A stretch of 19,995 nucleotides of DNA from Myxococcales bacterium. GTDB taxonomy: Bacteria; Myxococcota; Myxococcia; Myxococcales; Anaeromyxobacteraceae. Position numbers and translations under genes: made by a program. Location: positions 1-19,995 of the forward strand of contig JBBQEB010000062.1 of the NCBI GenBank assembly GCA_038320275.1. Reading direction: 5' to 3'. Of this stretch, positions 1,481-19,995 are shown in pieces. The first letter of the stretch is position 1, and each line of letters opens with the position of its first letter. The notes beneath the pieces are model-generated. The model worked only from the letters and a program-made list of their open reading frames with translations. It was not told where the DNA came from and did not search any database.

Positions 1481-3386
1481 TTCCCCCAGGTATTACGGGT
1501 AGATGTGCACGGAACTGGTCGAGGGGTCGTGTTACTAGGTGAGGGGTGGCGGCGGCGGGTTCGGTACCTGCGTAACCCCGTGGATCTTGGGCGGGGGATC
1601 GACCCTGAGCTTCCGGAGGAGCCCCTCGGTTTCCGGGCTCATGGAGGTGGTCTGGAGGTCGCGCGAGCCGCCGCGGTCGTACTCGATGACCTTCCCGCGC
1701 TCCAGCTCGGCACTGACGTTGCGCCAGGTGTCGCCGGCGCGGATCTCGATGATGCGCTCCAGGAGTAGCGCGAGGACGGAGATGGTGACGTGGGCCTGGA
1801 TGCGCCAGGATGCATGGTGGAAGACCGGCCGCATCCGCAGCCCGCCCTTGAGCTGCCGCCAGCACTGCTCGACGCGGAGGAGCTGCTTGTAGCCCAGGGC
1901 AAGATCCTCGGCGGTGAGCGAGTCGTCGTTGGAGGTAATGACCCACTTGCCGTCATAGCGGCTGGCGTCCTCAATGGCGCCGCGGTCGATGGCAATCTTG
2001 CCGGTCTTGGACTCACGCAGGAGCCGACCGTAGCGGGCGCTGGTGCGCAGTTCGCAGACGCGCTTGGAGTGGGCCTTCCCCGCGCGCTGGTCGAGCGTGG
2101 CGAGTTCGGCCTCGAGCTCGCCGATCAGCTTCTGGCGGTGCGCCGCCTGCCGCTCTGCCTCGGCCGGGTTGTGGCAGACGACGTAGCGTCGGCGGCGCTC
2201 GCCGTCACCGACCAGGACCTCCTTGACCCGCAGGTTGTCGCGGACCTCCTGGTAGCGGCCGGCGCGAGCGAGCACCTCGGTGGTGACCTCGTCGCCGGCG
2301 CGCATCCGCGAGGCGAGGATGTACTTGCCGTTGCCGAGCGCGAGCTTCTGCCGGTTCTCCTCCGAGTTCATCCCGGCGTCGCCGACGAAGACGCAGCGCC
2401 CGAGCCGCCAACCGCGCAGGTCCTCCTTCACCTTGGCGACCGTCGTCATGTCATTGGTCTCGCCGGAGAAGACCCACGACCGCACCGGCAGGCCGTCGCG
2501 CGTGACGGCCAGACCGACCACGATCTGCGGCGCGTCGCCCCGTCCGTTCTTGGAGTGGCCACGCTTGCGCAGCGCCTCGTACTCGCGCCCGTGATGGGCG
2601 TGCGGCGCCTCGTCCTCCTCGTCGATCTCGAAGTGCAGCGAGGTCGTGTCGTAGAAGATGACGTCGACGTCGGCGTTCATCAGGTCGGCCATCTTGAAGT
2701 AGACGGCCTTCTCGACGTCGAGCTTGTGATCCTCCAGGAAGTCCATCGCCAAGTAGAGGTGGTGCAAGTCGAGCGCCTTGGCGTCCGGCAGGAACACCTC
2801 CTCGCGGAGCCACTGCTCCCAGCAGTAGAGCTTGGAGTACGGCGACAGCGCGCGGTTGGCGACCATCGCGAAGAGCGCGCGCTCGAACGCCTCCGCCGTC
2901 CGTCGCGTCTTCGCGTGCGCCCGCAGGATCTCGTCGACGCCGAGTTCGGACCAGAGCTTCCCGAGCGCGTAGACCCCGCCGTAGGGCCACGACTGCCGGA
3001 GCTCCACGTCGTCGGGGACGACCACATCGTCCTTCGCGGTGGAGACCTCTCCCACCGAGCGCAGGATGCTCGCTGCGAGGCTCCGCAGCACCTGCTCCTT
3101 CGCCTCGTCGGCCCGACCGAAGTTGTAGACCACCTTGGCGACTGCGAAGCGCCGCTCGGTGTCCCAGGTGTTCTCGGCGAGCTGGTGGTACTTGACCTCG
3201 GTGCCGTCGGCGTTCCGGCGCTTCGTCGTCCGCAGGTACATGCCTATTTGATACGACGTAAGATGCCTACGGTCAAGCCAGCAGGCGCAAGTCGTGTGCC
3301 TATGAGTTTCGGGCCTCAGCGGCGCTCAACCCCTGGAGATGACTGGGTGCGTGTGCCTCGGAGGCCCGGAAATTTTCAAAGTCGGG
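1444..3386 (-). mobile_element. Complete IS1634-family insertion sequence (1943 bp)
   Basis: Terminal inverted repeats CCCGAGTTTGAAAAT (1444-1458) and ATTTTCAAAGTCGGG (3372-3386), 14/15 match. Direct repeat GGAGA at 1439-1443 and 3387-3391. Single transposase ORF inside. Confidence 0.93.
1535..3241 (-). CDS. IS1634-family DDE transposase, 568 aa, intact
   Basis: Motifs FYDTTSLHFE, RGHSKNGRGDAPQIVVGL, VFVGDAGM, DGKWVITSN, YKQLLRVEQCWRQLK, RPVFH...IQAHV. Tandem TAG TAA stops. Confidence 0.93.
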   Translation of the reverse strand: MYLRTTKRRNADGTEVKYHQLAENTWDTERRFAVAKVVYNFGRADEAKEQVLRSLAASILRSVGEVSTAKDDVVVPDDVELRQSWPYGGVYALGKLWSELGVDEILRAHAKTRRTAEAFERALFAMVANRALSPYSKLYCWEQWLREEVFLPDAKALDLHHLYLAMDFLEDHKLDVEKAVYFKMADLMNADVDVIFYDTTSLHFEIDEEDEAPHAHHGREYEALRKRGHSKNGRGDAPQIVVGLAVTRDGLPVRSWVFSGETNDMTTVAKVKEDLRGWRLGRCVFVGDAGMNSEENRQKLALGNGKYILASRMRAGDEVTTEVLARAGRYQEVRDNLRVKEVLVGDGERRRRYVVCHNPAEAERQAAHRQKLIGELEAELATLDQRAGKAHSKRVCELRTSARYGRLLRESKTGKIAIDRGAIEDASRYDGKWVITSNDDSLTAEDLALGYKQLLRVEQCWRQLKGGLRMRPVFHHASWRIQAHVTISVLALLLERIIEIRAGDTWRNVSAELERGKVIEYDRGGSRDLQTTSMSPETEGLLRKLRVDPPPKIHGVTQVPNPPPPPLT

Positions 3387-3391
3387 GGAGA
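3351..3391. repeat. IS terminal inverted repeat (transposase 5' side) plus target-site duplication
   Basis: GTGTGCCTCGGAGGCCCGGAAATTTTCAAAGTCGGG|GGAGA. Confidence 0.9.
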
Positions 3392-4165
3392 GCCTCTCCA
3401 GCCGGTCGGCGAGCGTCTCCTCGCGGAGCTGCACGCCGTCCTGCTCGAGCAGGGCCTCGTAGATGGGGGTGGGCCAGTAGTGTCGGGCGATGCCGTAGGC
3501 CAGCATGTTGGCGATCATGAGCGGCAGGATGAGGGAGTACCCTCCCGTCATCTCGACGATGATCAAGACGGAGGTGGTCGGCGCGCGGATGATCCCCGCG
3601 AACACCGCCCCCATCCCGACCAGGGCGAACGTGCCCAGGGCGTCGCTGGAGTGGTGCAGGAGCGCCATGTCCAGCGCGCCGACGGCGCCGCCCGCCATGC
3701 CGCCGATGAACAGCGCGGGCGCGAAGATGCCGCCTGCACCCCCGCTGGAGTAGGAGAAGACGGTCGCCGCCAGCTTGAGGAGGCAGAGCGGGACGAGCAG
3801 CTTCAGGGCGACCTTCTCCGCCAGCGCCGCCCCGAGGGTCGCGTAGCCGCCGCCCGTCACGCCCGGGGCGCCGAGGGTGGCGACGGCCAGCACCGCCAGC
3901 AGGCCCGTCGCGAGCCCTCCTACCGCGGGGTGCGCCCAGCGGTGCCGCGCGCCCTTGAAGCGCCTGCGCAACGCGACCAGGGACTCGGTGAAGGCGAGCG
4001 CGAGCGCCGCCGCCACGAGCCCCAGCACGGCGTACATCACGAGCGAGGACAGGTGCTCGAGCCCGTAGGGCCGGGGGACCTCGAAGATGGGGTGAACGAC
4101 GAGGACGCTGCGCTCGACGATGGCGCCAGCGCGGCGGCGACCACCACCCCGGAGAGGACGGTCTG
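3387..4165 (-). pseudogene. Chloride channel (ClC family) membrane domain, C-terminal half only
   Basis: Motifs GGAGGIFAPALFIGG, APTTSVLIIVEMTG and PIYEALL. The N-terminal half (GSGIP/GREGP motifs) is absent. An alternative frame 4165-4127 reads QTVLSGVVVAAALA, implying a 1-nt deletion near 4125. Confidence 0.88.
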
Positions 4166-4641
4166 CCACCACGCCCATGATGACCTCGGCCTCCCAGGAT
4201 GGCCGGGACGACAGCAACTGTCGGAACCCCATCCGCTTCATGGCGGTGAGCACGGCGTGGGTATCGCCGTGGATGCGCGAGGCGGTGACCTCGAAGAGCT
4301 CGCTGGCCGGGGCGAGGCGCTCGCCGTGCAACACGCGGCGGATCGCGTCGATCTGCTCGTCGGCGAGAGACGAAAGATTGGCGAGCGTGCGCTTGCGCAC
4401 CTTGCCGCCGTCGCGAAAGGACTCCCGGAGCAGGTAGGCGGGACGGGAGCCTCGGTTAGGCACGACGTCGACGTGCATGGGATACAGTAGCGCATGTAGG
4501 CGACATTCTGCAAGCTCATGGATGACAAATACATGGCTACATTATGCAGCCCGTTACGACAGCGGCGCAGCACCGAAGCTCTGCGCCGCATGGACTTCCC
4601 TGCCTTTACGAGGTCTGGAACCTACCGAAACTTCAGGCTAG
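4166..4641 (-). mobile_element. Truncated second IS1634-type element: 5' end plus first ~105 codons of transposase (ATG at 4478)
   Basis: MHVDVVPNRGSRPAYLLRESFRDGGKVRKRTLANLSSL is an IS1634-type transposase N-terminus. It is preceded by a lower-GC non-coding leader. The end at ...GAAACTTCAGGCTAG (4641) is inferred because no partner end is present. Confidence 0.7.
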
Positions 4642-11331: not shown

Positions 11332-11625
11332 ATGGCAAATTCCGCCGGGTATCACGAGCCGTTCGAACACCTCTCCCCCAAGACGCGCGACCTGCACCGG
11401 GCGCTCACCTCGCTCCAGGAGGAGCTCGAGGCGGTCGACTGGTACCAGCAGCGCATCGACGTCATCGAGGACGCCGAGCTGAAGAGTATCCTCGAGCACA
11501 ACCGCGACGAGGAGAAGGAGCACGCGGTGATGCTCCTCGAGTGGATCCGCCGCAACGACCCGGCCTTCGCACGCCAGATCGCGGCCAAGATCGACAAGCC
11601 CGGCCACATCGCCAAGGAGGAGTAA
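11332..11625 (+). CDS. Encapsulated-ferritin-type (EncFtn/Flp) ferritin-like protein, 97 aa
   Basis: GYHEP...RDLHRALTSLQEELEAVDWYQQR...ILEHNRDEEKEHAVMLLEWIRRND. AGGAGG RBS at 11318-11323. Confidence 0.92.
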   Translation: MANSAGYHEPFEHLSPKTRDLHRALTSLQEELEAVDWYQQRIDVIEDAELKSILEHNRDEEKEHAVMLLEWIRRNDPAFARQIAAKIDKPGHIAKEE

Positions 11626-11689: not shown

Positions 11690-12362
11690 AGCGGAACCGC
11701 AGCTCGAAGGGCATGGAGATCCGGGCCGTCCCGGCGCGGGCGCCGGAGGCCTGCAGCACCTGCCCGACCACCTTGGCCTGGGCGCAGGCGAGGAGCGCGT
11801 CGCTCGCGCCCGCCGGCGACTGCACTGGCGCCTTCGCGATGCGCACCTCGCCGTCCGCGGGCTCGAGCTCGAGGAGCAGCACCGGTGAGCCTCCGGGGCG
11901 CGAAAGGTGGCGCCCCCCGGAGCTGGCCGGGAGGAAGGTGGGCTGCTTGCGTGCGAAGGGCGTCTGCGCCGCGCTCGCGCCGCATGCGGCGACCTGAGCG
12001 TGCAGGGCGTCGAGCCCTGCCAGGAGGTCGGTGGGAGCGGCGGTGCCGCGCAGGCCTCCGCGGGTGATGCGCCGGGCCACCAGCGCGGGCCCCATCGGGC
12101 GCGGGGCGGGCGCGGGGCGGCGAACGGGAGAGACCGGGATCGCCAACGCCGCGGAGGCCGGAGCGGAGGCGACTGCCGGCGGGGGCGCTCGCGCCGGCTC
12201 TGCTCGAGACTCCGGGGACGAGGCTGGCGCCGCCACCGCCTCGGCGGGAGCTGCCGGCGGTGGCGGTGGCAAACGCGTCACCCACGCGATGACCGCCAGG
12301 CTGCCCCCGAAGAGCACCACCACGGCGGCGAGGGCCGCGAGGAGCGCTCGCCGTCCGCTCAC
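11688..12362 (-). CDS. Hypothetical membrane-anchored protein: TM helix, Pro/Ala linker, C-terminal two-Cys domain (TonB-like architecture)
   Basis: GTG start overlaps the FKBP stop (GTGA). Sequence RRALLAALAAVVVLFGGSLAVIAWV, then PPPPPAAPAE..., then QVAACG...LLACAQ...ISMPFELRF. Confidence 0.7.
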   Translation of the reverse strand: MSGRRALLAALAAVVVLFGGSLAVIAWVTRLPPPPPAAPAEAVAAPASSPESRAEPARAPPPAVASAPASAALAIPVSPVRRPAPAPRPMGPALVARRITRGGLRGTAAPTDLLAGLDALHAQVAACGASAAQTPFARKQPTFLPASSGGRHLSRPGGSPVLLLELEPADGEVRIAKAPVQSPAGASDALLACAQAKVVGQVLQASGARAGTARISMPFELRFR

Positions 12363-13039
12363 TTCACGTCCAGGAGCTCGAGCTCGAACACCAGCGTGGA
12401 TGACGGGCCAATCTTGCCCACCCCGCGGGAGCCGTACCCGAGCTGCGGCGGGACGACGAGCTCCCACTTCGACCCTGCCGGCATCAGCTTCAGCGCCTCG
12501 CGCCAGCCGGGGATGACCTTCGCGACCTGAAGCGAGGCGGGCTTTCCCTCGGGCGAGGCGTCGAACTCCGTGCCGTCCACCAAGGTCCCGCGGTAGGTGC
12601 AGCTCACCGTGTCGGCATCGGTGGGCTTCTTTCCGGTCCCGGTACGCAGGACCTTGTACTGGAGCCCGCTCGCGGTGGTCACCACCCCGGGCTTCGCCTT
12701 GTTGGCGGCGAGGAAGGCGGCGCCCACCTTGGCGTTGGAGCCTCCGCCGCGCGCCGCCTTCATCTTGTTCCGCATCTCCGTCTGGAACTCGGCCAGGGCG
12801 GTCTTGAGCTCCCCGTCGGAGAGCGCCAGCTTCGAGCCCGCGAACCAGTCGCGCAGGCCGCGGGAGAGCGCGTCGGCGTCCACCTCGCCCCCCTGAGCCT
12901 TGAGGTTCCGCGCGAGGTCCGCGCCCAGCGCATAGCTCATGCGCTGGCGCCGGTTGGCGAGGGGCGCCGGCTCGGCGGCGCGAGCGGCCACGGAGGCGAG
13001 CGCGAGGATCGCGATGACGAGGAAGGCGCGTGTTCTCAT
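12359..13039 (-). CDS. FKBP-type peptidyl-prolyl isomerase with N-terminal dimerisation domain and signal peptide (Mip/FkpA-like)
   Basis: SYALGADL, GVVTTASGLQYKVL, YRGTLVDGTEFD, VIPGWREALKLM, LVFELELLDV. GGAGA RBS. Signal MRTRAFLVIAILALASVAARA. Confidence 0.95.
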   Translation of the reverse strand: MRTRAFLVIAILALASVAARAAEPAPLANRRQRMSYALGADLARNLKAQGGEVDADALSRGLRDWFAGSKLALSDGELKTALAEFQTEMRNKMKAARGGGSNAKVGAAFLAANKAKPGVVTTASGLQYKVLRTGTGKKPTDADTVSCTYRGTLVDGTEFDASPEGKPASLQVAKVIPGWREALKLMPAGSKWELVVPPQLGYGSRGVGKIGPSSTLVFELELLDVK

Positions 13040-13116
13040 GAAGGTCTCCCGGCGCGTGGTGCGCGGCGTCTCTCTTATCCCGCGGCGAGCGTCGAGCGCG
13101 CGAGGAACTCGTGCCC

Positions 13117-14859
13117 TCAATAGCTGCCGTCGAGGGCCGCCAGCAGCGAAAGCCCCAGCCCCTTTTCCGCGGCGCCGCTCGACGCGAGGCCGACGCGTGT
13201 CAGGCCCGACAGCCGGAACCGGAGCCAGGGCGCCAGATCCTTCGAGGCGCTCGCCAGGAGGCCGAGTGTGACGTCGCTCGCGACGGGCGCCGGGCGGGTG
13301 TCCATGAAGAACGAGGCGCGCGAGAGGAGCCGCAGGCCCCAGGCGGCGTCCCCCTGCGCCTGCAGCCAGAGGCTCCGCCCGCCGGCCCAGCCGCGCTCCT
13401 CGAACCAGCCCGCGGAGGCGCCGCCCCGGCGTCCGAAGAGGCGCGGCAGCGCGAGCTCCGGCCCGCCGTACCCGCGGTCGAGGCCGGTGGTGAGGTCCTT
13501 GGCGTAGCCGCCGATCGCGCGCAAGGTCAGCGCCGGAGAGAGGTCCCACCCGGCGCTCGCCTCGGCGTGCCGGGCCGGGTTGGGGAAGAGCGCCGGCGCG
13601 CCGAGGTCGCCCGAGCCCAGCACCGAGAGCCCCTGGTAGCGCAGGCTGCCGGTGACGAAGAGTGGCGGCGCGAGCCGGGCGGAGAGCTCGAGGCGCGCGG
13701 CGTCGAGCGCGCCCGGCGCGGTCCGGTCGCCCATGAGCCCGAGCCTCGCGCCGCCGGAGAGATCGATGCTGCGGGACAGCCAGGCATGGCCGGACGCCTC
13801 CGCCTCCAGGCGCGTGCCCAGCTCGGGCGAGCGCACCATGGCGAGGCGCCCCTCGCCCCGCAGCATGGTGGACGCGCCCGAGCTCTCCAGCGCGCCGTAG
13901 GCGCCGGCGGTGGCGCGGCTCGTGGTGAGCCCGGTGGTGAGGACGTCCGGCACGGCACCGCCGAAGATGCCCAGCTCCGTGCCCCCGCTGCGCCAGCCCA
14001 CCTGCGCGCCGTCGAACGGGGTCGAGCCGGGCGCGCTCCAGGGCAGCACGCGGCCGATGGAGAGGGCGAAGGCCCGGCCGGGCTCGCGCGAGCTGGCGGA
14101 GAGCTCTCGCACCTCGACCCAGGCGGACTCCCCGGTGCGGAAGCGCTCGGAGACCGCGTTCGGCCGGGCCACCGCGCTCGCGTCGGCGAACAGGCGCCAG
14201 CCCGGGGCGAGCTCGGCGCCGCGAATGCGCGCCTCCAGCCGCTCCTCCGCGAGCCCGCTGGCGCCCGCGGTGAAGAAGCTCGCGTGCACGAGGCTCGCCT
14301 CGACGCCGTGGGGCGCCGCCGCCGCGCCGGGGCGCGGCCCAGGGGTGAACTCGACGGTCGCCACCGGAGCGGTGGCGAGGGCGGCCCGGCGGCGCGCCTG
14401 CTCGGAGGCGGTCAGGAGTGGAGGGAGCGGCGGGGGCGGCGCGGGGGCGGGCGCCGCCGCGGCGAGCGCGGTCGAGTCGCCCGGCTTCACGTCCGTCCCG
14501 GTGCAGCTCGAGGCGTGGTCCGAAGCCGCCTCCACGGTGCAGGTGCCGGCCGGCGCGCCGGCCCGCCTCAGCCGGAGCGATCGTCCGGGAGCGAGGCCGT
14601 CGAGGGTGCCGGCGTCGAGGTAGGCGCGCCCCGCGGCCACGCTCAGCACGGTGGCGATGCCGCTCACCCGCGCCCGCGCCTTCACCCGTGCAGGAGCGCG
14701 AGGGGGCGCGGGAGGGGTGGCCGGCATGGCCCGGGCAGGGCGTGCCGCGCGCCGCGGGGCCGCGCCCTCTCCCCGCGCGAGCGCAGGCGCCATGGCGAGG
14801 AGCAGCAGGGCGAGCGCGGCCGGGAAGCGCCCGGGCCCTCGCGGGGGTCGAAGGCTCAC
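13117..14859 (-). CDS. Putative outer-membrane beta-barrel protein with small N-terminal beta domain, 580 aa
   Basis: GTG overlaps the cytochrome stop. Signal peptide (AALALLLLAMAPALARG). Alternating amphipathic strands (FDGAQVGWR, ELGIFGG, AEASAGWDL). C-terminal strand ends in an aromatic residue (LSLLAALDGSY). Confidence 0.8.
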   Translation of the reverse strand: MSLRPPRGPGRFPAALALLLLAMAPALARGEGAAPRRAARPARAMPATPPAPPRAPARVKARARVSGIATVLSVAAGRAYLDAGTLDGLAPGRSLRLRRAGAPAGTCTVEAASDHASSCTGTDVKPGDSTALAAAAPAPAPPPPLPPLLTASEQARRRAALATAPVATVEFTPGPRPGAAAAPHGVEASLVHASFFTAGASGLAEERLEARIRGAELAPGWRLFADASAVARPNAVSERFRTGESAWVEVRELSASSREPGRAFALSIGRVLPWSAPGSTPFDGAQVGWRSGGTELGIFGGAVPDVLTTGLTTSRATAGAYGALESSGASTMLRGEGRLAMVRSPELGTRLEAEASGHAWLSRSIDLSGGARLGLMGDRTAPGALDAARLELSARLAPPLFVTGSLRYQGLSVLGSGDLGAPALFPNPARHAEASAGWDLSPALTLRAIGGYAKDLTTGLDRGYGGPELALPRLFGRRGGASAGWFEERGWAGGRSLWLQAQGDAAWGLRLLSRASFFMDTRPAPVASDVTLGLLASASKDLAPWLRFRLSGLTRVGLASSGAAEKGLGLSLLAALDGSY

Positions 14860-16049
14860 CCGCCGCCTCCACCATTGTTGTCGGTGTGGCAGGCGAGGCA
14901 ACTGTAGGCCTTGAAGTCGGCGGCCCAGGCCTTGTCGCCGCGGGAGGTCCGGTGGCAGGCGAGGCAGAACGGGCCGTGCCCTTCGCCAGTCAGCCCGTGT
15001 CTCACCGAGGGATGGCTCGCGATGCGATTCACCTGCCCGTCGGCGTGGCAGCGGAGGCAGGAGGCGGTGGCCCAGGCGTAGCTCGCGTACGTGATCCGGT
15101 CGAGGCGTCCCGTCGCGGCGCGGATGGCGGCGTGCTTCGTCGCCATGGCGGGCTGTGCGTGGCAGGGAACACAGGTGACGTCGGCGACCTTCTTGGTCGC
15201 CCCGTGACAGGCCGAACAGCCGACCGTCGCATGCTTGGTGCCGGTCACCGGGAAGAGCGCCGCGTCGTGGTTCGCCGGAAGCCCGGCTCGCCCGTCGGTG
15301 TGGCAGTCGTAGCAGGAGGGCGAGCTGTAGGCGTAGTTGGCGATGCCCACATGGGCGGCGTCGGTGCTCGCCCGGTCGTGGTCGTGACAGGCGGTGCACT
15401 GGAGGTCGGCCTTGGCGCGCGTCGGCCCGTGGCAGGTGGCGCAGCCGATGCCGCGATGAGGGGAGGCGGCGTCGATGGGGAACGGGTGGTCGAAGCTCGG
15501 GATGCCGCCGTCCTTGTGGCAGCCGTAGCAGGCGGGGCTCGCGAAGGCGTAGTTCGGGAGCCCGGCGTGAGCGGCATCCATCGCGGGCTGGTCGTGATGG
15601 CCGTGGCAGGTGGCGCACTGGAGATCCGTCACCGCCTTGGTGGGGCCGTGACAGGCCGCGCAGGCGAGCTTCTCGTGCGTGGCGCCCGGAGCGATGGGGA
15701 AGAACAGCGCATGGTCGACCGCGGCCGTGCCACCCTTGTGGCAGGGAACGCAGCTGTCGTTTCCGTAGGCGAAGCCCGATACGGCGGCGTGGGCCGGGGT
15801 CACGTCGGCCTGAGCGTGGCAGTGCAGGCAGTCCATCCCGCCTGCGGACAGAGCGAAGGAGGGCGCCGACGGCTCATGGCACCTGTCGCAGGCGAAGCCC
15901 GCGTGCGAGCCCATGACCACGAAGTGGTCCGCGTGGACGAACCGCTTCGGGCTCGCCCCGCCGTCGCCGCCGCACCCGGCGGAGAGGGCAAGGATGCAGA
16001 GGGACGCGATTGCAAATGAAGGGCTGGCTGCGACGAGGCGCACTCTCAT
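14856..16049 (-). CDS. Multiheme c-type cytochrome lipoprotein, 14 CxxCH, 397 aa
   Basis: ATGA overlap with the upstream gene. Lipobox LSAG-C. 14 CxxCH counted: four triheme repeats plus two. Confidence 0.92.
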   Translation of the reverse strand: MRVRLVAASPSFAIASLCILALSAGCGGDGGASPKRFVHADHFVVMGSHAGFACDRCHEPSAPSFALSAGGMDCLHCHAQADVTPAHAAVSGFAYGNDSCVPCHKGGTAAVDHALFFPIAPGATHEKLACAACHGPTKAVTDLQCATCHGHHDQPAMDAAHAGLPNYAFASPACYGCHKDGGIPSFDHPFPIDAASPHRGIGCATCHGPTRAKADLQCTACHDHDRASTDAAHVGIANYAYSSPSCYDCHTDGRAGLPANHDAALFPVTGTKHATVGCSACHGATKKVADVTCVPCHAQPAMATKHAAIRAATGRLDRITYASYAWATASCLRCHADGQVNRIASHPSVRHGLTGEGHGPFCLACHRTSRGDKAWAADFKAYSCLACHTDNNGGGGG

Positions 16050-16921
16050 GGGGTCTTCCCTCCGCTCCGGCGCAGCGCGCCGCTGCCGCCCGTCGTTCCG
16101 CCGGGGTGGCACTCGTAGCACTTGCGCGCGAAGCAGGCGAAGCCCGCCACGGTGGGGTGCTTGCCGCAATCGTGGCAGCGCATGCAGGCCGCCGTCCCGG
16201 TGCTGCAGGCGCCCGTCGCCGCGATGCTCCCCAGCGAGGTGTGGCACTTCAGGCAGGCGACCCCAGCGTGCCGCCCGCTCGCGATGGGAAAGCAGGCCTC
16301 GTGCTGAGCGAAGGAGGCGCCCTGGAAGCGCCACGGTCCGTGGCACTCCTGGCAGCGCGTGCCAAACCCGGCCGCGCGATGGTCGACGGCGCGCCCGGCG
16401 GTGGCGTCATAGTCCTTCTGATGACAGGCGATGCACCCCGGCGTCGCGCGGGTGAAGCCGCGGTCGCGCCGGTCGCCGTGGCAGGCCTCACAGGGCAGGA
16501 AGGCGTGGCGGCCCACCAGCGGGAAGTTGCCGCGCCGGTGCGCGTCCGCGTCGAAGCGGGACCGCCACGAGCTCTCCTCGTGGCAAGCCTCGCAGCGCGC
16601 GCCCAGCCGCCCCTCGTGCGCATCGCGGTGGCACGAGCCGCACGTCCGCCCCAGCGCGCGCGTGAAGCTCTCGGCATGGCAGGCCTTGCAGCCGGCGCGA
16701 AGGTGGGCACCGCGCAGCGGAAAGCCGGTGCGCTCGTGCGCGAACGCCACCTCGCTCCAGCCGTCCGGGGTGTGGCAGGCCTCGCAGCGCGTGTCGTCCG
16801 GGTGGGAGGGCGGAAGCGGCCGGAGATCCGGCGCGTTGCGGCCGCGGGCGCCGGGAGCGAGCGCCTCCGGGCTGGCGGCGGCGGAGAGGGAGAGCGCGGC
16901 GGCGAGAAGGGCGGCGATCAT
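16046..16921 (-). CDS. Periplasmic multiheme c-type cytochrome, 10 CxxCH, 291 aa
   Basis: ATGA overlap. Signal MIAALLAAALSLSAAA. 10 CxxCH counted. Confidence 0.92.
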   Translation of the reverse strand: MIAALLAAALSLSAAASPEALAPGARGRNAPDLRPLPPSHPDDTRCEACHTPDGWSEVAFAHERTGFPLRGAHLRAGCKACHAESFTRALGRTCGSCHRDAHEGRLGARCEACHEESSWRSRFDADAHRRGNFPLVGRHAFLPCEACHGDRRDRGFTRATPGCIACHQKDYDATAGRAVDHRAAGFGTRCQECHGPWRFQGASFAQHEACFPIASGRHAGVACLKCHTSLGSIAATGACSTGTAACMRCHDCGKHPTVAGFACFARKCYECHPGGTTGGSGALRRSGGKTP

Positions 16922-18816
16922 CGGGGAAGGCTCGTGGGCTCGAAGCCCCGGAAAGCGCCCTTGTGGAAGTCGGCGTGGCAGCCCGCGCAGGCGCGCGGCA
17001 GGCCGCGGTAGCGCCGGACCGGCGCGCCGCCCGCCACCACCACCTCTGCGTGGCACCTGGCGCAGGCGACGCGGGCGTGCTTCCCGGTGAGCGGGTAGTC
17101 CGTGAAGGGCTGTTCATGCCGGAAGAGGGTCTTCTTCCAGTCGTCGGCGGCGTGGCAGCGGGTGCAGTCGGTGGTGGGCTCCGGCGAGACCCCCGGCGCG
17201 CTCGCCACGGCGGCGAACTGCCCGGCGTGCGGGTCGGCGTGGCAGGCGGCGCAGGCCGAGGCGATCGGGCGATAGCGCACCGCGCCGCCCAGCGCGGGAT
17301 CGGACCGGTGGCAGCTCGCGCAGCGCGCCCTGGCGTGCTTCCCCACGAGCGCGAAGCGGCTGTCGTTGCCATGGTCGAAGCGGACCGTGCGGAAGGAGCT
17401 CGCCTCGTGACAGGAGGCACAGCCCTGGGCGCGGACGAGCTGTCCGGCATGCGGGTCGGCGTGGCAGGTCTCGCAGCGGGCCAGGTCGCCGCCCAGGTGG
17501 AGCACCGCCGGGGAGATCTGGAGCTCGAGCCCGCGGCGCTCCACCTCGGCGCGCACGGGGGCCGGTACGCGGGCGGCGAGCCCGGGATCGCGCGGATGGC
17601 AGGCGGCGCAGGCCACCACCCGGTGCGCTCCGGCGAGCGGATAGGCCGTGCGCTCGTGCTCGGCTTGCCCGAACCGTGCCGGGGCGAAGCCCTGCACCGT
17701 GTGGCAGCGGTCACAAGCCGCACCCTGGGCTCCGCGCCCGGCGAGCTGGCCCACGTGCGCGTCGGCGTGGCAGTCGGCGCAGGCGCCGAACGGGAGCCCC
17801 TTGAAGCGCGCTGGCTCGCCCTTCCACGGACCGTGACAGGAGACGCAGGCCACTGCGCCGTGCGCTCCGAGGAGTGGGTAGCGGGTCCTGTCGTGGAAGG
17901 CGCGCGCCCCGGGGCTGCCCGCCGCCCCGCCGGTGGCGGAGCTCGCGATCTTCCGCCAGCCCTCCGTGATGTGGCAGCTCGCGCAGGCGTTCCCGAAGCG
18001 ACCCTCGTGCGCGTCCTTGTGGCAGTCGAGGCAGGAGGCGTGCGCCACCGGCCGGTAGCGCGTGAAGTGGTCGGCGGCGACCGGGGCGGTGAGCGCGCCG
18101 TGGCCGGGCGCGGGCTCCTTCACCTGCGGGTGGCACTTCGCGCAGGCGGCCCTGGCGTGCAGGCCGGTGAGCGGGTACGCGGTGCGAGCGTGGTCGAAGC
18201 GCGGCACCGGTTTCCAGCCCGCGTCACCGTGGCAGCGGACGCAATCGGGCCCGAGCTGACCTCGGTGCTCGTCGAAGTGGCAGCGGGCGCAGGCGTCGAG
18301 AGCGGGCGCGCCCAGGTAGGTCTGCCGGCGCGGTGACTTCGCGAGGAGCTCCTTCACCGCCGGATCGGCGACGAGGCGCGGATCGTGGCACCGCTCACAC
18401 GCCACCTTCGCGTGCTTGCCGCCCAGGGCGACCCCTGTCCTGGCGTGATCGAAGCGCCTCGGGCCGCCCTCGCCCCACTCCACCAGCGGCGCCGCCTCGC
18501 CCTGGTGCTCGTGGTGGCAGGTCCAGCAGTCGCGGTCCTTCGCGGCGAGCTTTCCATGGAAGCCGCGCCCCTGCGCGACGCGCGGCGCGAGCTCGGTGTG
18601 GCACTCCAGGCAGCGCGCTTGCGAGAGCTGCTCGCCCCTGGGATGGCACTTCGTGCAGTGGTCGAGTCCCGACAGCTTCGCGTGCGCGCGGGAGAGGTCG
18701 CCGGGAGAGAACACGTCGGCCGCGCGGGCGGCGCCGCCCACGCCGGCGAGGGCGAGGGCGATGGCGAGAGCCAGGCGGACGAGCCGCGGCGCGCGAGGGC
18801 GTCCGAGGGGGCTCAT
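16918..18816 (-). CDS. Periplasmic multiheme c-type cytochrome, 20 CxxCH, 632 aa
   Basis: ATGA overlap. Signal ...LALAIALALAGVGGAARA. SPGDLSRAH N-terminus. 20 CxxCH counted in repeats FDH-x-RT-x-YPL-x-G-x-H...CxxCH. Confidence 0.94.
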   Translation of the reverse strand: MSPLGRPRAPRLVRLALAIALALAGVGGAARAADVFSPGDLSRAHAKLSGLDHCTKCHPRGEQLSQARCLECHTELAPRVAQGRGFHGKLAAKDRDCWTCHHEHQGEAAPLVEWGEGGPRRFDHARTGVALGGKHAKVACERCHDPRLVADPAVKELLAKSPRRQTYLGAPALDACARCHFDEHRGQLGPDCVRCHGDAGWKPVPRFDHARTAYPLTGLHARAACAKCHPQVKEPAPGHGALTAPVAADHFTRYRPVAHASCLDCHKDAHEGRFGNACASCHITEGWRKIASSATGGAAGSPGARAFHDRTRYPLLGAHGAVACVSCHGPWKGEPARFKGLPFGACADCHADAHVGQLAGRGAQGAACDRCHTVQGFAPARFGQAEHERTAYPLAGAHRVVACAACHPRDPGLAARVPAPVRAEVERRGLELQISPAVLHLGGDLARCETCHADPHAGQLVRAQGCASCHEASSFRTVRFDHGNDSRFALVGKHARARCASCHRSDPALGGAVRYRPIASACAACHADPHAGQFAAVASAPGVSPEPTTDCTRCHAADDWKKTLFRHEQPFTDYPLTGKHARVACARCHAEVVVAGGAPVRRYRGLPRACAGCHADFHKGAFRGFEPTSLPR

Positions 18817-19995
18817 CGGTGCAGGATCCCGTAGCCGAGCCACAGCGAGACGCCGATGTGCGCGGCGATGGCGAAGACGAGGAAGATGGCGAGCGAGGCG
18901 TGGAAGATCCGCCACCCACCGAGCAGCCCCTTGAGCGAGCCGTAGAAGCCGATCTGCAGCCGGAGACGGCGCAGGCGCTGGTAGGACTCGCGGAAGCCCA
19001 GGTAGGCGGCGCGCTCCGGGAACAGCCCGCGCACCTGGGCGAGGTCGGCGCGCGCGCGGAGGGCCTGGCCCGGCCAGCCGAGCAGGGCCACCGCCAGCGA
19101 GCGCCGGGCGAGTGGCTTCGTCACGCGCGCGAAGAGCGCACGCACCTTCGCGGGGTCGCGCACGCTGTCGAGGAGCGGCTCCACCTCGTCGCGCAGCCGC
19201 ACGAAGCCCGCCTGAAGCTCCTCCAGCTCCACCGCTCGCCCGCCTGCGCCCGGGACGAGCCCGAAGATGTAGCGGCCCACGATGCCGGTGAGGACCACCA
19301 CCGCGAGCGCGCTGGCGGTGCCGGTGGCGAGGAGGTTGCGCGACTGGAACGCGGAGTGGAAGGCGATGACGAGCGGGCTCATGAAGCCCACGAACACGTG
19401 CACCTGGAGCCAGGTTCGGATGTGGCCCTTCCCCCGCAGGACTCCGAGGTGCTTGCGGGCCGCGTAGAAGAAGTTCGACAGCATGAACAGCGTCGCCGCG
19501 ATCCCGATGCCATGCCCCCACGCACCAGCCGATCGGAGCGCGTGGTGCAGCGGGGAGCGCATGCGGGCGCGTGGATCGAGGAGGTAGTACGCGCGGCCTT
19601 GCCAGGCGAGGAACGCCAGGATGGCGAGGGCGGCCGCGAACAGGGCCAGGTTGAGCCCGCGCTCGAACCTGCGCCGGGCGCGGTCCCTCTCCTTGCCAGC
19701 CTGCGCGACGCGCGCGCGCTTGACCCCGGTTCTGGGCGCGCCCGGCGCCTCGCCGAAATAGCCCCGCAGCCCCACCCCGGCGCGGGCGAGCAGCTCGTTG
19801 GGGAGCTCACCGCCGGCCTGGACGATCACGAAGTCGTTGGCGATGGCCTCTTCGCCTTCCGCGAGGGCCAGCACCACCTCACGCGCGGCGATCGAGCGGA
19901 CCTGGGAGGCGAGCGCGAGGCGCAGCGAGCCCGCGCGCGCGAGCGCCTCCACGGCCGCGCGGTTCTCGGCGCGGGCTTTCCCCAGCGCTGCGCCG
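18813..19995 (-). CDS. Partial: FAD/NAD(P)-dependent (thioredoxin-reductase-fold) oxidoreductase C-terminus fused to a His-containing membrane domain (putative di-heme b)
   Basis: Frame is open to the window edge (GAALGKARAENRAAVEAL...). SQVRSI...VVL...NDFVIVQAGGELP resembles the end of the NAD(P)-binding domain of pyridine-nucleotide oxidoreductases. TM helices follow, with WLQVHVFVG...IAFH, TGIVGRY and WRIFH...IAAH. Confidence 0.75.
   Translation of the reverse strand, partial: GAALGKARAENRAAVEALARAGSLRLALASQVRSIAAREVVLALAEGEEAIANDFVIVQAGGELPNELLARAGVGLRGYFGEAPGAPRTGVKRARVAQAGKERDRARRRFERGLNLALFAAALAILAFLAWQGRAYYLLDPRARMRSPLHHALRSAGAWGHGIGIAATLFMLSNFFYAARKHLGVLRGKGHIRTWLQVHVFVGFMSPLVIAFHSAFQSRNLLATGTASALAVVVLTGIVGRYIFGLVPGAGGRAVELEELQAGFVRLRDEVEPLLDSVRDPAKVRALFARVTKPLARRSLAVALLGWPGQALRARADLAQVRGLFPERAAYLGFRESYQRLRRLRLQIGFYGSLKGLLGGWRIFHASLAIFLVFAIAAHIGVSLWLGYGILHR

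Follow-up and report, generated by a model that had tools for sequence, protein, structure and literature searches.

How do electrons enter a chain of cytochromes that spans the whole cell envelope, and do they have to pass through the quinone pool on the way? To our knowledge, in all characterised routes of extracellular electron transfer in Gram-negative bacteria it is the quinol pool from which electrons depart the inner membrane, by way of CymA, ImcH, CbcL or CbcBA. The question is raised by five consecutive genes, here named A to E, in a 19,995-base stretch of DNA from a Myxococcales bacterium of the family Anaeromyxobacteraceae (assembly GCA_038320275.1, contig JBBQEB010000062.1). This stretch, hereafter referred to as the window, is an entire contig (C62) of a 4.1-Mb genome (G000) that is divided into 343 contigs and is 90.7% complete. 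The five genes encode an iron-sulphur (Fe-S) flavoprotein fused to a membrane domain (A), three multihaem c-type cytochromes (B, C and D) and a predicted outer-membrane barrel (E). The operon is of the porin-cytochrome kind. It combines a membrane protein like that of the PCC3 clusters and a long periplasmic cytochrome with an outer half that follows the logic of the Mtr system, and it is set apart by the fused NAD(P)H-type Fe-S flavoprotein. On balance, we lean slightly towards the view that A to E form a single conduit through the whole envelope, which would pass electrons from NAD(P)H to extracellular acceptors and bypass the quinones.

Layout and conservation of the operon

The preliminary description of this DNA had five genes chained by ATGA and GTGA overlaps, and the junctions read exactly so at the positions that it gave (Table 1). 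The four start/stop overlaps are consistent with a single transcript and with translational coupling. The window has a G+C content of 66-79%, and the nearest named relatives of its proteins are found in Anaeromyxobacter species, the proteins of A. diazotrophicus being 60-63% identical. In public sequence data, one DNA dataset contains a match, the sediment metagenome run X1.

To describe conservation, we used 11 loci, which are the stretches around homologues of A in related genomes. Genes A, B, C and E stand in the same order in ten of them, which come from several genera and families; the eleventh locus has a second copy of A with other partners. Among 41 related genomes, A and E were both present in 17 and both not found in 23, while genome G021 has only a partial match to A (3e-4). 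E is found in the same 17 genomes as the strong matches to A, on the same contigs where the contigs allow, and at strong thresholds neither gene occurs alone in any of the 41. The co-occurrence of the genes in other genomes, which the preliminary description had named as a check, is thus borne out for A-B-C-E by the loci and for the pair A and E by the genomes. Domain order, motifs, export signals and co-inheritance are all features of the sequences themselves, and judged on them A to E is a real, conserved operon.

Table 1 Coordinates of the operon. Positions are those of the window unless another contig is named.
Feature	Position	Strand	Remarks
Gene A, 3' part (393 codons + stop)	18813-19994	-	5' end cut by contig end; open frame
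Gene A, 5' part (400 codons)	G000:C212 = L011:4299-5498	+	ATG start at 4299
Membrane domain of A (298 aa)	18816..19709	-	residues 96-393 of window piece; predicted binder of two b-haems
Gene B, 632-aa secreted cytochrome, 20 CxxCH	16918-18816	-	
Gene C, 291-aa secreted decahaem cytochrome	16046-16921	-	
Gene D, 397-aa lipoprotein cytochrome, 14 CxxCH	14856-16049	-	
Gene E, 580-aa secreted protein, predicted outer-membrane barrel	13117-14859	-	
Start/stop overlaps A-B, B-C, C-D (ATGA)	18813-16, 16918-21, 16046-49	-	
Start/stop overlap D-E (GTGA)	14856-59	-	

Protein A and its cofactor domains

The piece of A that lies in the window encodes the last ~90 residues of a flavin adenine dinucleotide (FAD)/NAD(P)H domain, a linker and a five-helix membrane domain. 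When the same genome was searched with this 393-residue piece, a second match of 46 residues, 100% identical, was found at the end of contig C212. The final 141 bases of C212 are the reverse complement of the window end, identical and in frame. The joined protein A would have about 746 amino acids, and its full-length fused orthologues have 739-768. A public contig of run X1 extends 261 bases past the C212 end. The fusion of an oxidoreductase with a membrane protein, which the preliminary description had read from the last 393 residues, therefore stands, with the first 400 residues recovered on C212.

Protein A is composed of an N-terminal transmembrane (TM) helix, an Fe-S domain, a flavoprotein like thioredoxin reductase (TrxR) and the five-helix membrane domain. 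The N-terminal hydrophobic helix is followed by an Arg-rich sequence. The Fe-S domain is recognised as Fer4_10 of Pfam at residues 54-103 of the C212 piece, with 39.7 bits against a cut-off of 25.5. It has two Cx5Cx3CP motifs with six conserved Cys, which are present in both fused and split relatives. In both forms, the canonical second Cys is replaced, by Ser in the first motif and by His in the second. This six-Cys domain may hold 3Fe-4S clusters or use a ligand other than Cys. Of the Fe-S Cys motifs that were to be looked for in the oxidoreductase, the Fer4 domain is there, but with six conserved Cys and not eight.

The flavoprotein matches the Pfam family Pyr_redox_3 at residues 176-376 of the C212 piece with 123.6 bits (cut-off 30), and Pyr_redox_2 with 80.6 bits. 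Two dinucleotide-binding motifs are found in this N-terminal piece, GAGPAG at 178 and GGGDSA at 330. Both lie on C212, in the upstream sequence where the preliminary description had advised looking for FAD and NAD motifs. The closest solved structures are TrxR-like enzymes, YpdA/Bdr and ferredoxin-NADP reductases of the TrxR type (7a76, 7.7e-24; 7a7b; 3ab1). The flavoprotein has no CxxC motif, and the sole Cys outside the Fe-S domain, C156, is not conserved. No curated NCBIfam model scored above its cut-off for the flavoprotein (TIGR04018, YpdA, 129.9 vs 339.9; TIGR01292, 66.5 vs 343.45).

Residues of the membrane domain are numbered here as in the 393-residue window piece. Hydropathy, charge and an AlphaFold 2 (AF2) model place its helices at about 113-135, 158-178, 194-216, 222-247 and 361-388, with a basic insert of ~110 amino acids between helices 4 and 5. 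Helix 3 carries the motif W195-x3-H199-x13-H213 and helix 5 the motif W361-x3-H365-x13-H379. Helix 4 has T236-G-x-x-G240-R241 (TGIVGR), in which Thr takes the place of the Ser of SGxxG. The four His and two Trp do not vary in any of 18 fused homologues or of 37 mostly stand-alone homologues with 30-48% identity. Both Gly of helix 4 are likewise invariant in the fused proteins and in the 37-row alignment, where the Arg that follows is nearly so. The cofactor domains have to lie in the cytoplasm, and on this premise helices 3 and 5 are both predicted to cross from the inner to the outer side. The prediction is that H199 and H365 on the inner side, and H213 and H379 on the outer side, ligate two b-haems, one above the other in the membrane. 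No Pfam family matched the membrane domain, even at E<=10, apart from a chance match to SelB (E 0.092).

Fused and split forms of the input module

A search with HMMER (phmmer) over 1.84 billion representative sequences gave 1653 clusters at E<=1e-3, in which the membrane domain occurs in fused proteins of ~745 amino acids and in stand-alone proteins of ~290-300 amino acids. In the ESM Atlas, homologue clusters come from Acidobacteriota, Gemmatimonadota and Myxococcota. Among 201 sampled Myxococcota genomes, a count that takes in one unpublished genome (G217) to which no conclusion is tied, 60 match the full-length A orthologue at 1e-20, and ~28 of these, from many families, do so over its whole length in a single frame. 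In a tree of 225 membrane domains, the fused or stand-alone state changes at least 9-15 times. As short contigs may have left truncated genes among the stand-alone rows, the tree is not used to count fusion events.

Species genomes were also scanned with the subfamily of stand-alone membrane proteins. The scan gave 16 loci, from Polyangiaceae, Haliangium, Sandaracinaceae, Kofleriaceae, other Myxococcota and two Acidobacteriota. All 16 have B-like and C-like genes after the gene for the membrane protein. Twelve also have a separate gene close by, mostly divergent and adjacent, for a flavoprotein with 41-46% identity to the N-terminal piece of A. This split flavoprotein ends with ...KYGEA, exactly where the window protein reads YFGEA before its linker. 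An E profile matches in all 10 of the Anaeromyxobacter-type loci and, in six Polyangia loci, the open reading frame (ORF) right after C. From these neighbourhoods it follows that the flavoprotein, the membrane protein, the 20- and 10-haem cytochromes and the barrel travel together, whether fused or not. The position of the split flavoprotein beside the membrane protein supports a functional link between the two.

Cytochromes B, C and D

The three cytochromes contain 20 (B), 10 (C) and 14 (D) CxxCH motifs, 44 in total, and no CxxxCH or CxxxxCH. They have 28-32 residues per haem (29 in C). Further His, 27 in B, 10 in C and 20 in D, would be sufficient for bis-His ligation. D begins MRVRLVAASPSFAIASLCILALSAGC-GG, which is a lipoprotein-type Cys with Gly at +2. 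The haem counts of the preliminary description, and its last cytochrome as a lipoprotein with Gly at +2, are both confirmed. No relative of B, C or D was found when their sequences were compared with solved structures.

B has no Met after its signal peptide. It matches the Pfam families Cytochrome_C7 (84.1 bits), Cytochrom_CIII and Cytochrom_c3_2, and it is predicted to be a haem wire that spans the periplasm. Its orthologues have 20 motifs in nine of the ten loci and 23 in one. The latter belongs to the same genus (L014, G010:C3, 10536-14393) and has ~705 residues against the usual ~600-630. C has ten motifs in all ten loci, and none of its ten CxxCH varies among 20 aligned orthologues, which shows that the motifs are not there by chance. 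C is predicted to be the cytochrome that enters barrel E.

The set varies in D, for which a position at the cell surface is predicted. Seven of the ten loci of relatives have a lipoprotein cytochrome of 8-13 motifs between C and E, and the other three have none in that place. Next to one cluster that has no D between C and E, a frame of ~2464 residues contains 57 CxxCH and starts in the manner of a lipoprotein (L017, G031:C10, 679-8130, plus strand). At another locus (L016, G019:C5, 5330-9394), a 13-haem lipoprotein cytochrome and a barrel occupy one frame of ~1016 residues, which is either a D-E fusion or the result of a missing stop.

The barrel protein E

E has a signal peptide and no Cys-haem motif. 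Its AF2 model, made from an alignment with 25 homologues, has a mean predicted local distance difference test (pLDDT) score of 78.5 and shows 22 strands over residues 185-579, with a C-terminal Tyr. On this model, E is predicted to be a 22-strand outer-membrane barrel. Foldseek gave outer-membrane barrels as best matches, namely the FimD usher (8.1e-9), MOMP and porins of the OprD/Occ type, with template modelling scores (TM-scores) of 0.3-0.4. The proposal that the 580-residue protein is a β-barrel is therefore upheld by the model and by its best fold matches, and the low TM-scores make E a barrel of no known family. There was no MtrB chain among the best 50 Foldseek rows, an absence that by itself would decide little.

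The N-terminal parts of E consist of a small β domain, residues 68-131, and a helix, residues 151-163. The β domain is modelled confidently and has the invariant residues C107, C119 and R99. Our guess is that it could be a plug or a docking site for a cytochrome. A complex prediction for C (30-291) and E (60-580), run without controls, gave scores of 0.01 and 0.22 against a mark of 0.32, which weigh neither for nor against the pairing.

Comparison with known systems

In keeping with the preliminary description, no characterised system was matched. The closest is the predicted PCC3/PCC4 type of porin-cytochrome cluster, which had not been named there. In their passages on these clusters, He, Barco, Emerson & Roden 2017 (PMC5566968) define the inner-membrane proteins (IMPs) of PCC3 and PCC4 by their five TM helices, of which the third and the fifth carry W-x3-H-x13-H and the fourth SGxxG; they propose two b-haems and a quinone link for the IMPs, and they report no significant overall homology between those of PCC3 and PCC4. 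The membrane domain of A, with 298 residues against ~300, shares all three published features, a likeness by motif description. In A, however, it is the C-terminal domain of a protein of ~746 amino acids and not a free protein. Moreover, A adds a fused, TM-anchored Fe-S/FAD/NAD(P)H flavoprotein, which is unmentioned in the passages on PCC3/PCC4. For subgroup II of PCC4, these passages describe a separate Fe-S gene upstream of the IMP together with other 'redox genes', the domains of which are given in a supplementary figure.

The barrel, the long periplasmic cytochrome, the lipoprotein cytochrome and the IMP domain of a PCC3 cluster are co-encoded here too. The periplasmic cytochrome of PCC3 has 21-27 haems in Gallionellaceae according to a passage of Hoover et al. 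2023 (PMC10734462), against 20 in B. The four-gene layout of PCC3, with one periplasmic cytochrome, is not matched, as the present operon has the extra decahaem C, which all ten Anaeromyxobacter-type loci and all 16 stand-alone loci retain. The PCC3 porin has up to 42 predicted strands in the published passages on it, whereas 22 are predicted in E. A passage of a 2025 preprint still calls PCC3 functionally unverified (bioRxiv 10.1101/2025.02.27.639646). The hosts of PCC3/PCC4 are Proteobacteria, while the present hosts are Myxococcota. A tblastn search against plasmids, aimed at the named PCC3 organisms, gave no match.

In MtrCAB of Shewanella, the decahaem MtrA sits inside the barrel MtrB, MtrC is a decahaem lipoprotein at the surface, and the system is fed from quinol by CymA. 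The outer half of the present operon has the same logic, with a decahaem cytochrome of ~30 residues per haem (C), a barrel (E) and a surface lipoprotein (D). The families of C and E are different. Against TIGR03508 (DmsE/MtrA decahaem, cut-off 192.2 bits), C scores 23.1, B 33.3 and D 32.1 bits. E has no match to a Pfam family at E<=10 or to an NCBIfam family. D stands at the cut-off of one MtrC domain family, PF22113 (MtrC/MtrF domain II/IV), with 30.1 bits against 30 (E 4.1e-7), and no single stretch of it passes alone. The inputs differ as well, since that of MtrCAB is a quinol dehydrogenase and A would not be one.

The Pcc systems of Geobacter and Anaeromyxobacter are porin-cytochrome conduits, found in the same bacterial group, and they too have a lipoprotein outer cytochrome with about a dozen haems. 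The Anaeromyxobacter Pcc of Shi et al. 2014 (PMC4245776) consists of two genes, for a porin and for a 12-haem cytochrome of 338-344 amino acids. Identity with it was rejected, as the orthologous locus of a complete genome of the Anaeromyxobacter family (L013) has cytochromes of 20, 10 and 9 motifs (618, 309 and 262 amino acids); it is a different locus, of which Shi et al. give no description. The operon of Skennerton et al. 2017, with a β-propeller, 16-haem and 26-haem cytochromes and a peptidyl-prolyl isomerase, was rejected for its different composition, and identity with the Mto-type cluster of Methylobacter was rejected also.

The inner half recalls NOX, the ferric reductases (FRE) and MsrQ, in which cytoplasmic NAD(P)H, a flavin and two bis-His b-haems on two H-x13-H helices are combined; He et al. 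draw this parallel for the IMPs in the same passages (PMC5566968). The membrane domain of A has no match to Ferric_reduct or to another Pfam family, and what it shares with NOX/FRE is the H-x13-H pattern on two helices. In A the order of the domains is reversed and there is an additional Fe-S domain between them, and electrons would be handed to a cytochrome c wire and not to O2 or Fe(III) chelates. Furthermore, the flavoprotein of NOX has the FNR fold, while that of A belongs to the thioredoxin-reductase fold family. Within this family, YpdA/Bdr and the TrxR-type ferredoxin-NADP+ reductases are like the flavin domain of A in having two dinucleotide motifs and no CxxC. Judging by the names of the matches, no known TrxR-like protein carries both a ferredoxin domain and a membrane cytochrome in the same chain. 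In a search of the full-text literature, no description was found of a flavoprotein-membrane-cytochrome fusion or of the present Anaeromyxobacter cluster.

Neighbouring genes

Genes outside A to E are not conserved beside the cluster and were for this reason left out of the system. On the minus strand, 75 bases after the stop of E, a gene at 12359-13041 encodes a periplasmic peptidyl-prolyl isomerase of the FKBP type (FKBP_N and FKBP_C, with a signal peptide); no such isomerase lies beside the cluster in any of the 11 loci of relatives. An encapsulated-ferritin-like (EncFtn-like) gene is found 1.5 kb beyond E (11332-11625, plus strand, 129.5 bits) and has a homologue near the cluster in two of the 11 loci (L012 and L020). 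On the other side, ~200 bases upstream of A, C212 has a divergent gene for a hybrid of response regulator and histidine kinase (L011, 2996-4096, minus strand), with a homologue in two of the 11 loci (L015 and L020).

Further away, the segment 4518-11274 encodes an inorganic pyrophosphatase, Ppx/GppA and polyphosphate kinase 1, and then a myo-inositol-1-phosphate synthase and a CDP-alcohol phosphatidyltransferase, the last two of which suggest the synthesis of an inositol phospholipid. A DDE transposase (1535-3241, minus strand) adjoins an ORF for a ClC chloride channel (3300-4478, minus strand). This ORF matches only profile positions 135-346 of 346 and may be a gene truncated by insertion.

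Discussion

The route that we slightly favour can be described from the inside to the outside. Cytoplasmic NAD(P)H would reduce the FAD of A and then its Fe-S clusters, from which electrons would pass to the inner and on to the outer haem b, across the inner membrane. The outer haem b would reduce the 20-haem B, which would lead electrons across the periplasm to the decahaem C inside barrel E. From C, they would reach the surface lipoprotein D, and from there Fe(III) or Mn(IV) minerals, humics or similar acceptors. Haem b binding, the outward direction and the independence from quinones are the parts of this route that we infer. Outward flow would run with the membrane potential and leave the proton of NAD(P)H inside, so that the route as drawn would conserve no energy; its use would be to drain electrons fast and thereby restore NAD(P)+. 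In the opposite direction, electrons would have to overcome the potential gap as well as the membrane potential. The outward direction is favoured because it would be downhill, because it would run with the membrane potential, and because Anaeromyxobacter isolates are listed as Fe(III) reducers (PMC4245776).

A wider view of the operon, which is plausible but which we put forward with some reserve, is that it is a quinone-independent respiratory vent, in which one inner-membrane enzyme is hard-wired to the 20-haem B and to a porin-cytochrome exit; in that case the input module, in its fused or its split form, would supply the inner-membrane partner that the widespread, unexplained PCC3-type clusters of several phyla lack so far. 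Such a vent, and this too is offered tentatively, would discharge cytoplasmic reducing power onto minerals outside the cell with the help of the membrane potential, as would a bacterial NOX with 44 c-haems attached.

Several observations weigh against the NAD(P)H-fed route. The cluster is known from genomes, and so is the PCC3/PCC4 type, which the passages on it treat as functionally unverified. He et al. propose a reaction with quinones for such membrane proteins, and in the same passages PCC3 is found mainly in iron oxidisers, for which inward flow is assumed (PMC5566968). The argument for haem b binding is one from motifs. With a pLDDT of 71.3, the AF2 model of A is of moderate quality, and Foldseek with the model of the membrane domain found no solved fold at E<=1e-3. 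In VIA-align the best Z of this domain, 9.4, was to generic helical proteins, and the di-haem b561 CybB (5oc0_A), with Z 7.1 and a root mean square deviation of 4.6 over 133 aligned residues, lies within the noise of helical bundles. The Fe-S domain has six and not eight conserved Cys, so it may not be a plain 2x[4Fe-4S] domain. The join of C62 and C212 is made on a 141-base overlap and on the orthologues. RNA datasets with the operon sequence were looked for, and none was found.

The quinone proposal is the basis of the alternative that has to be considered most closely, although we regard it as rather unlikely. It says that the di-haem domain is a quinol oxidase or quinone reductase, and that the flavoprotein either gives it a side entry, making an NAD(P)H:quinone reductase on the same cytochrome b, or has a role in regulation or redox sensing, so that the pool is not bypassed. 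The passages of PMC5566968 propose a quinone-active cytochrome b for proteins with the same set of motifs, many homologues are stand-alone proteins of ~290-300 amino acids, and four of the 16 stand-alone loci have no flavoprotein gene within 9 kb. What speaks for a direct input is that the flavoprotein is fused in ~28 of the 201 Myxococcota genomes and adjacent in 12 of the 16 split loci, as a dedicated redox partner would be. Moreover, no quinone-site motif was identified, though no test aimed at one was made. The direction of flow could also be reversed, with uptake of electrons from Fe(II), reduced humics or a partner cell that are oxidised at the surface, and with the flavoprotein reducing NAD(P)+ or another cytoplasmic acceptor. 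It was in bacteria that oxidise Fe(II) that the related PCC3/PCC4 clusters were first found, and the passages on them draw the flow inward (PMC5566968); multihaem wires are reversible in principle, as a passage on MtoA and MtrA discusses (PMC10734462). On general bioenergetic grounds, however, uptake would have to push electrons to the side of the membrane that is negative and raise them to about -320 mV, and the operon has no visible subunit for energy coupling. With Fe(III) reducers named among the Anaeromyxobacter isolates in addition, we find this direction quite improbable.

A conduit that does run outward need not be respiratory. It could be a housekeeping reductase of the surface, which serves reductive iron acquisition, the detoxification of metals or oxidants, or redox repair in the envelope, as a two-membrane analogue of the ferric reductases, NOX and MsrQ. 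Two H-x13-H helices with an NAD(P)H flavoprotein are indeed the logic of ferric reductases and NOX, in the terms of the parallel drawn for IMPs in passages of PMC5566968. The route as drawn would conserve no energy, and the EncFtn-like gene lies near the cluster here and in two loci of relatives. Against this, 44 c-haems, a 20-haem protein that spans the periplasm and, in a relative, a surface cytochrome with up to 57 motifs are costly and resemble respiratory conduits, which makes a housekeeping role improbable in our view. That the genes are neighbours without a common function, or that the join of the contigs is an artefact of assembly, is suggested by the division of A over two contigs. 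We hold it to be very improbable, given the four start/stop overlaps, the same order in ten of 11 loci, the joint presence of A and E in 17 genomes with neither alone at strong thresholds, and the orthologues of A that run uninterrupted across the junction.

If the conduit is indeed fed by NAD(P)H, it would represent a different bioenergetic design, with a large driving force but no quinone step or energy conservation of its own. This could account for the way in which Anaeromyxobacter and further Myxococcota of soils and sediments dispose of electrons onto iron, manganese or humic matter. It would also give the inner-membrane proteins of PCC3 and PCC4 a concrete partner and set of cofactors. 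Furthermore, the fused protein A is compact and self-contained, and engineered bacteria could use it to connect their cytoplasmic NAD(P)H with electrodes.

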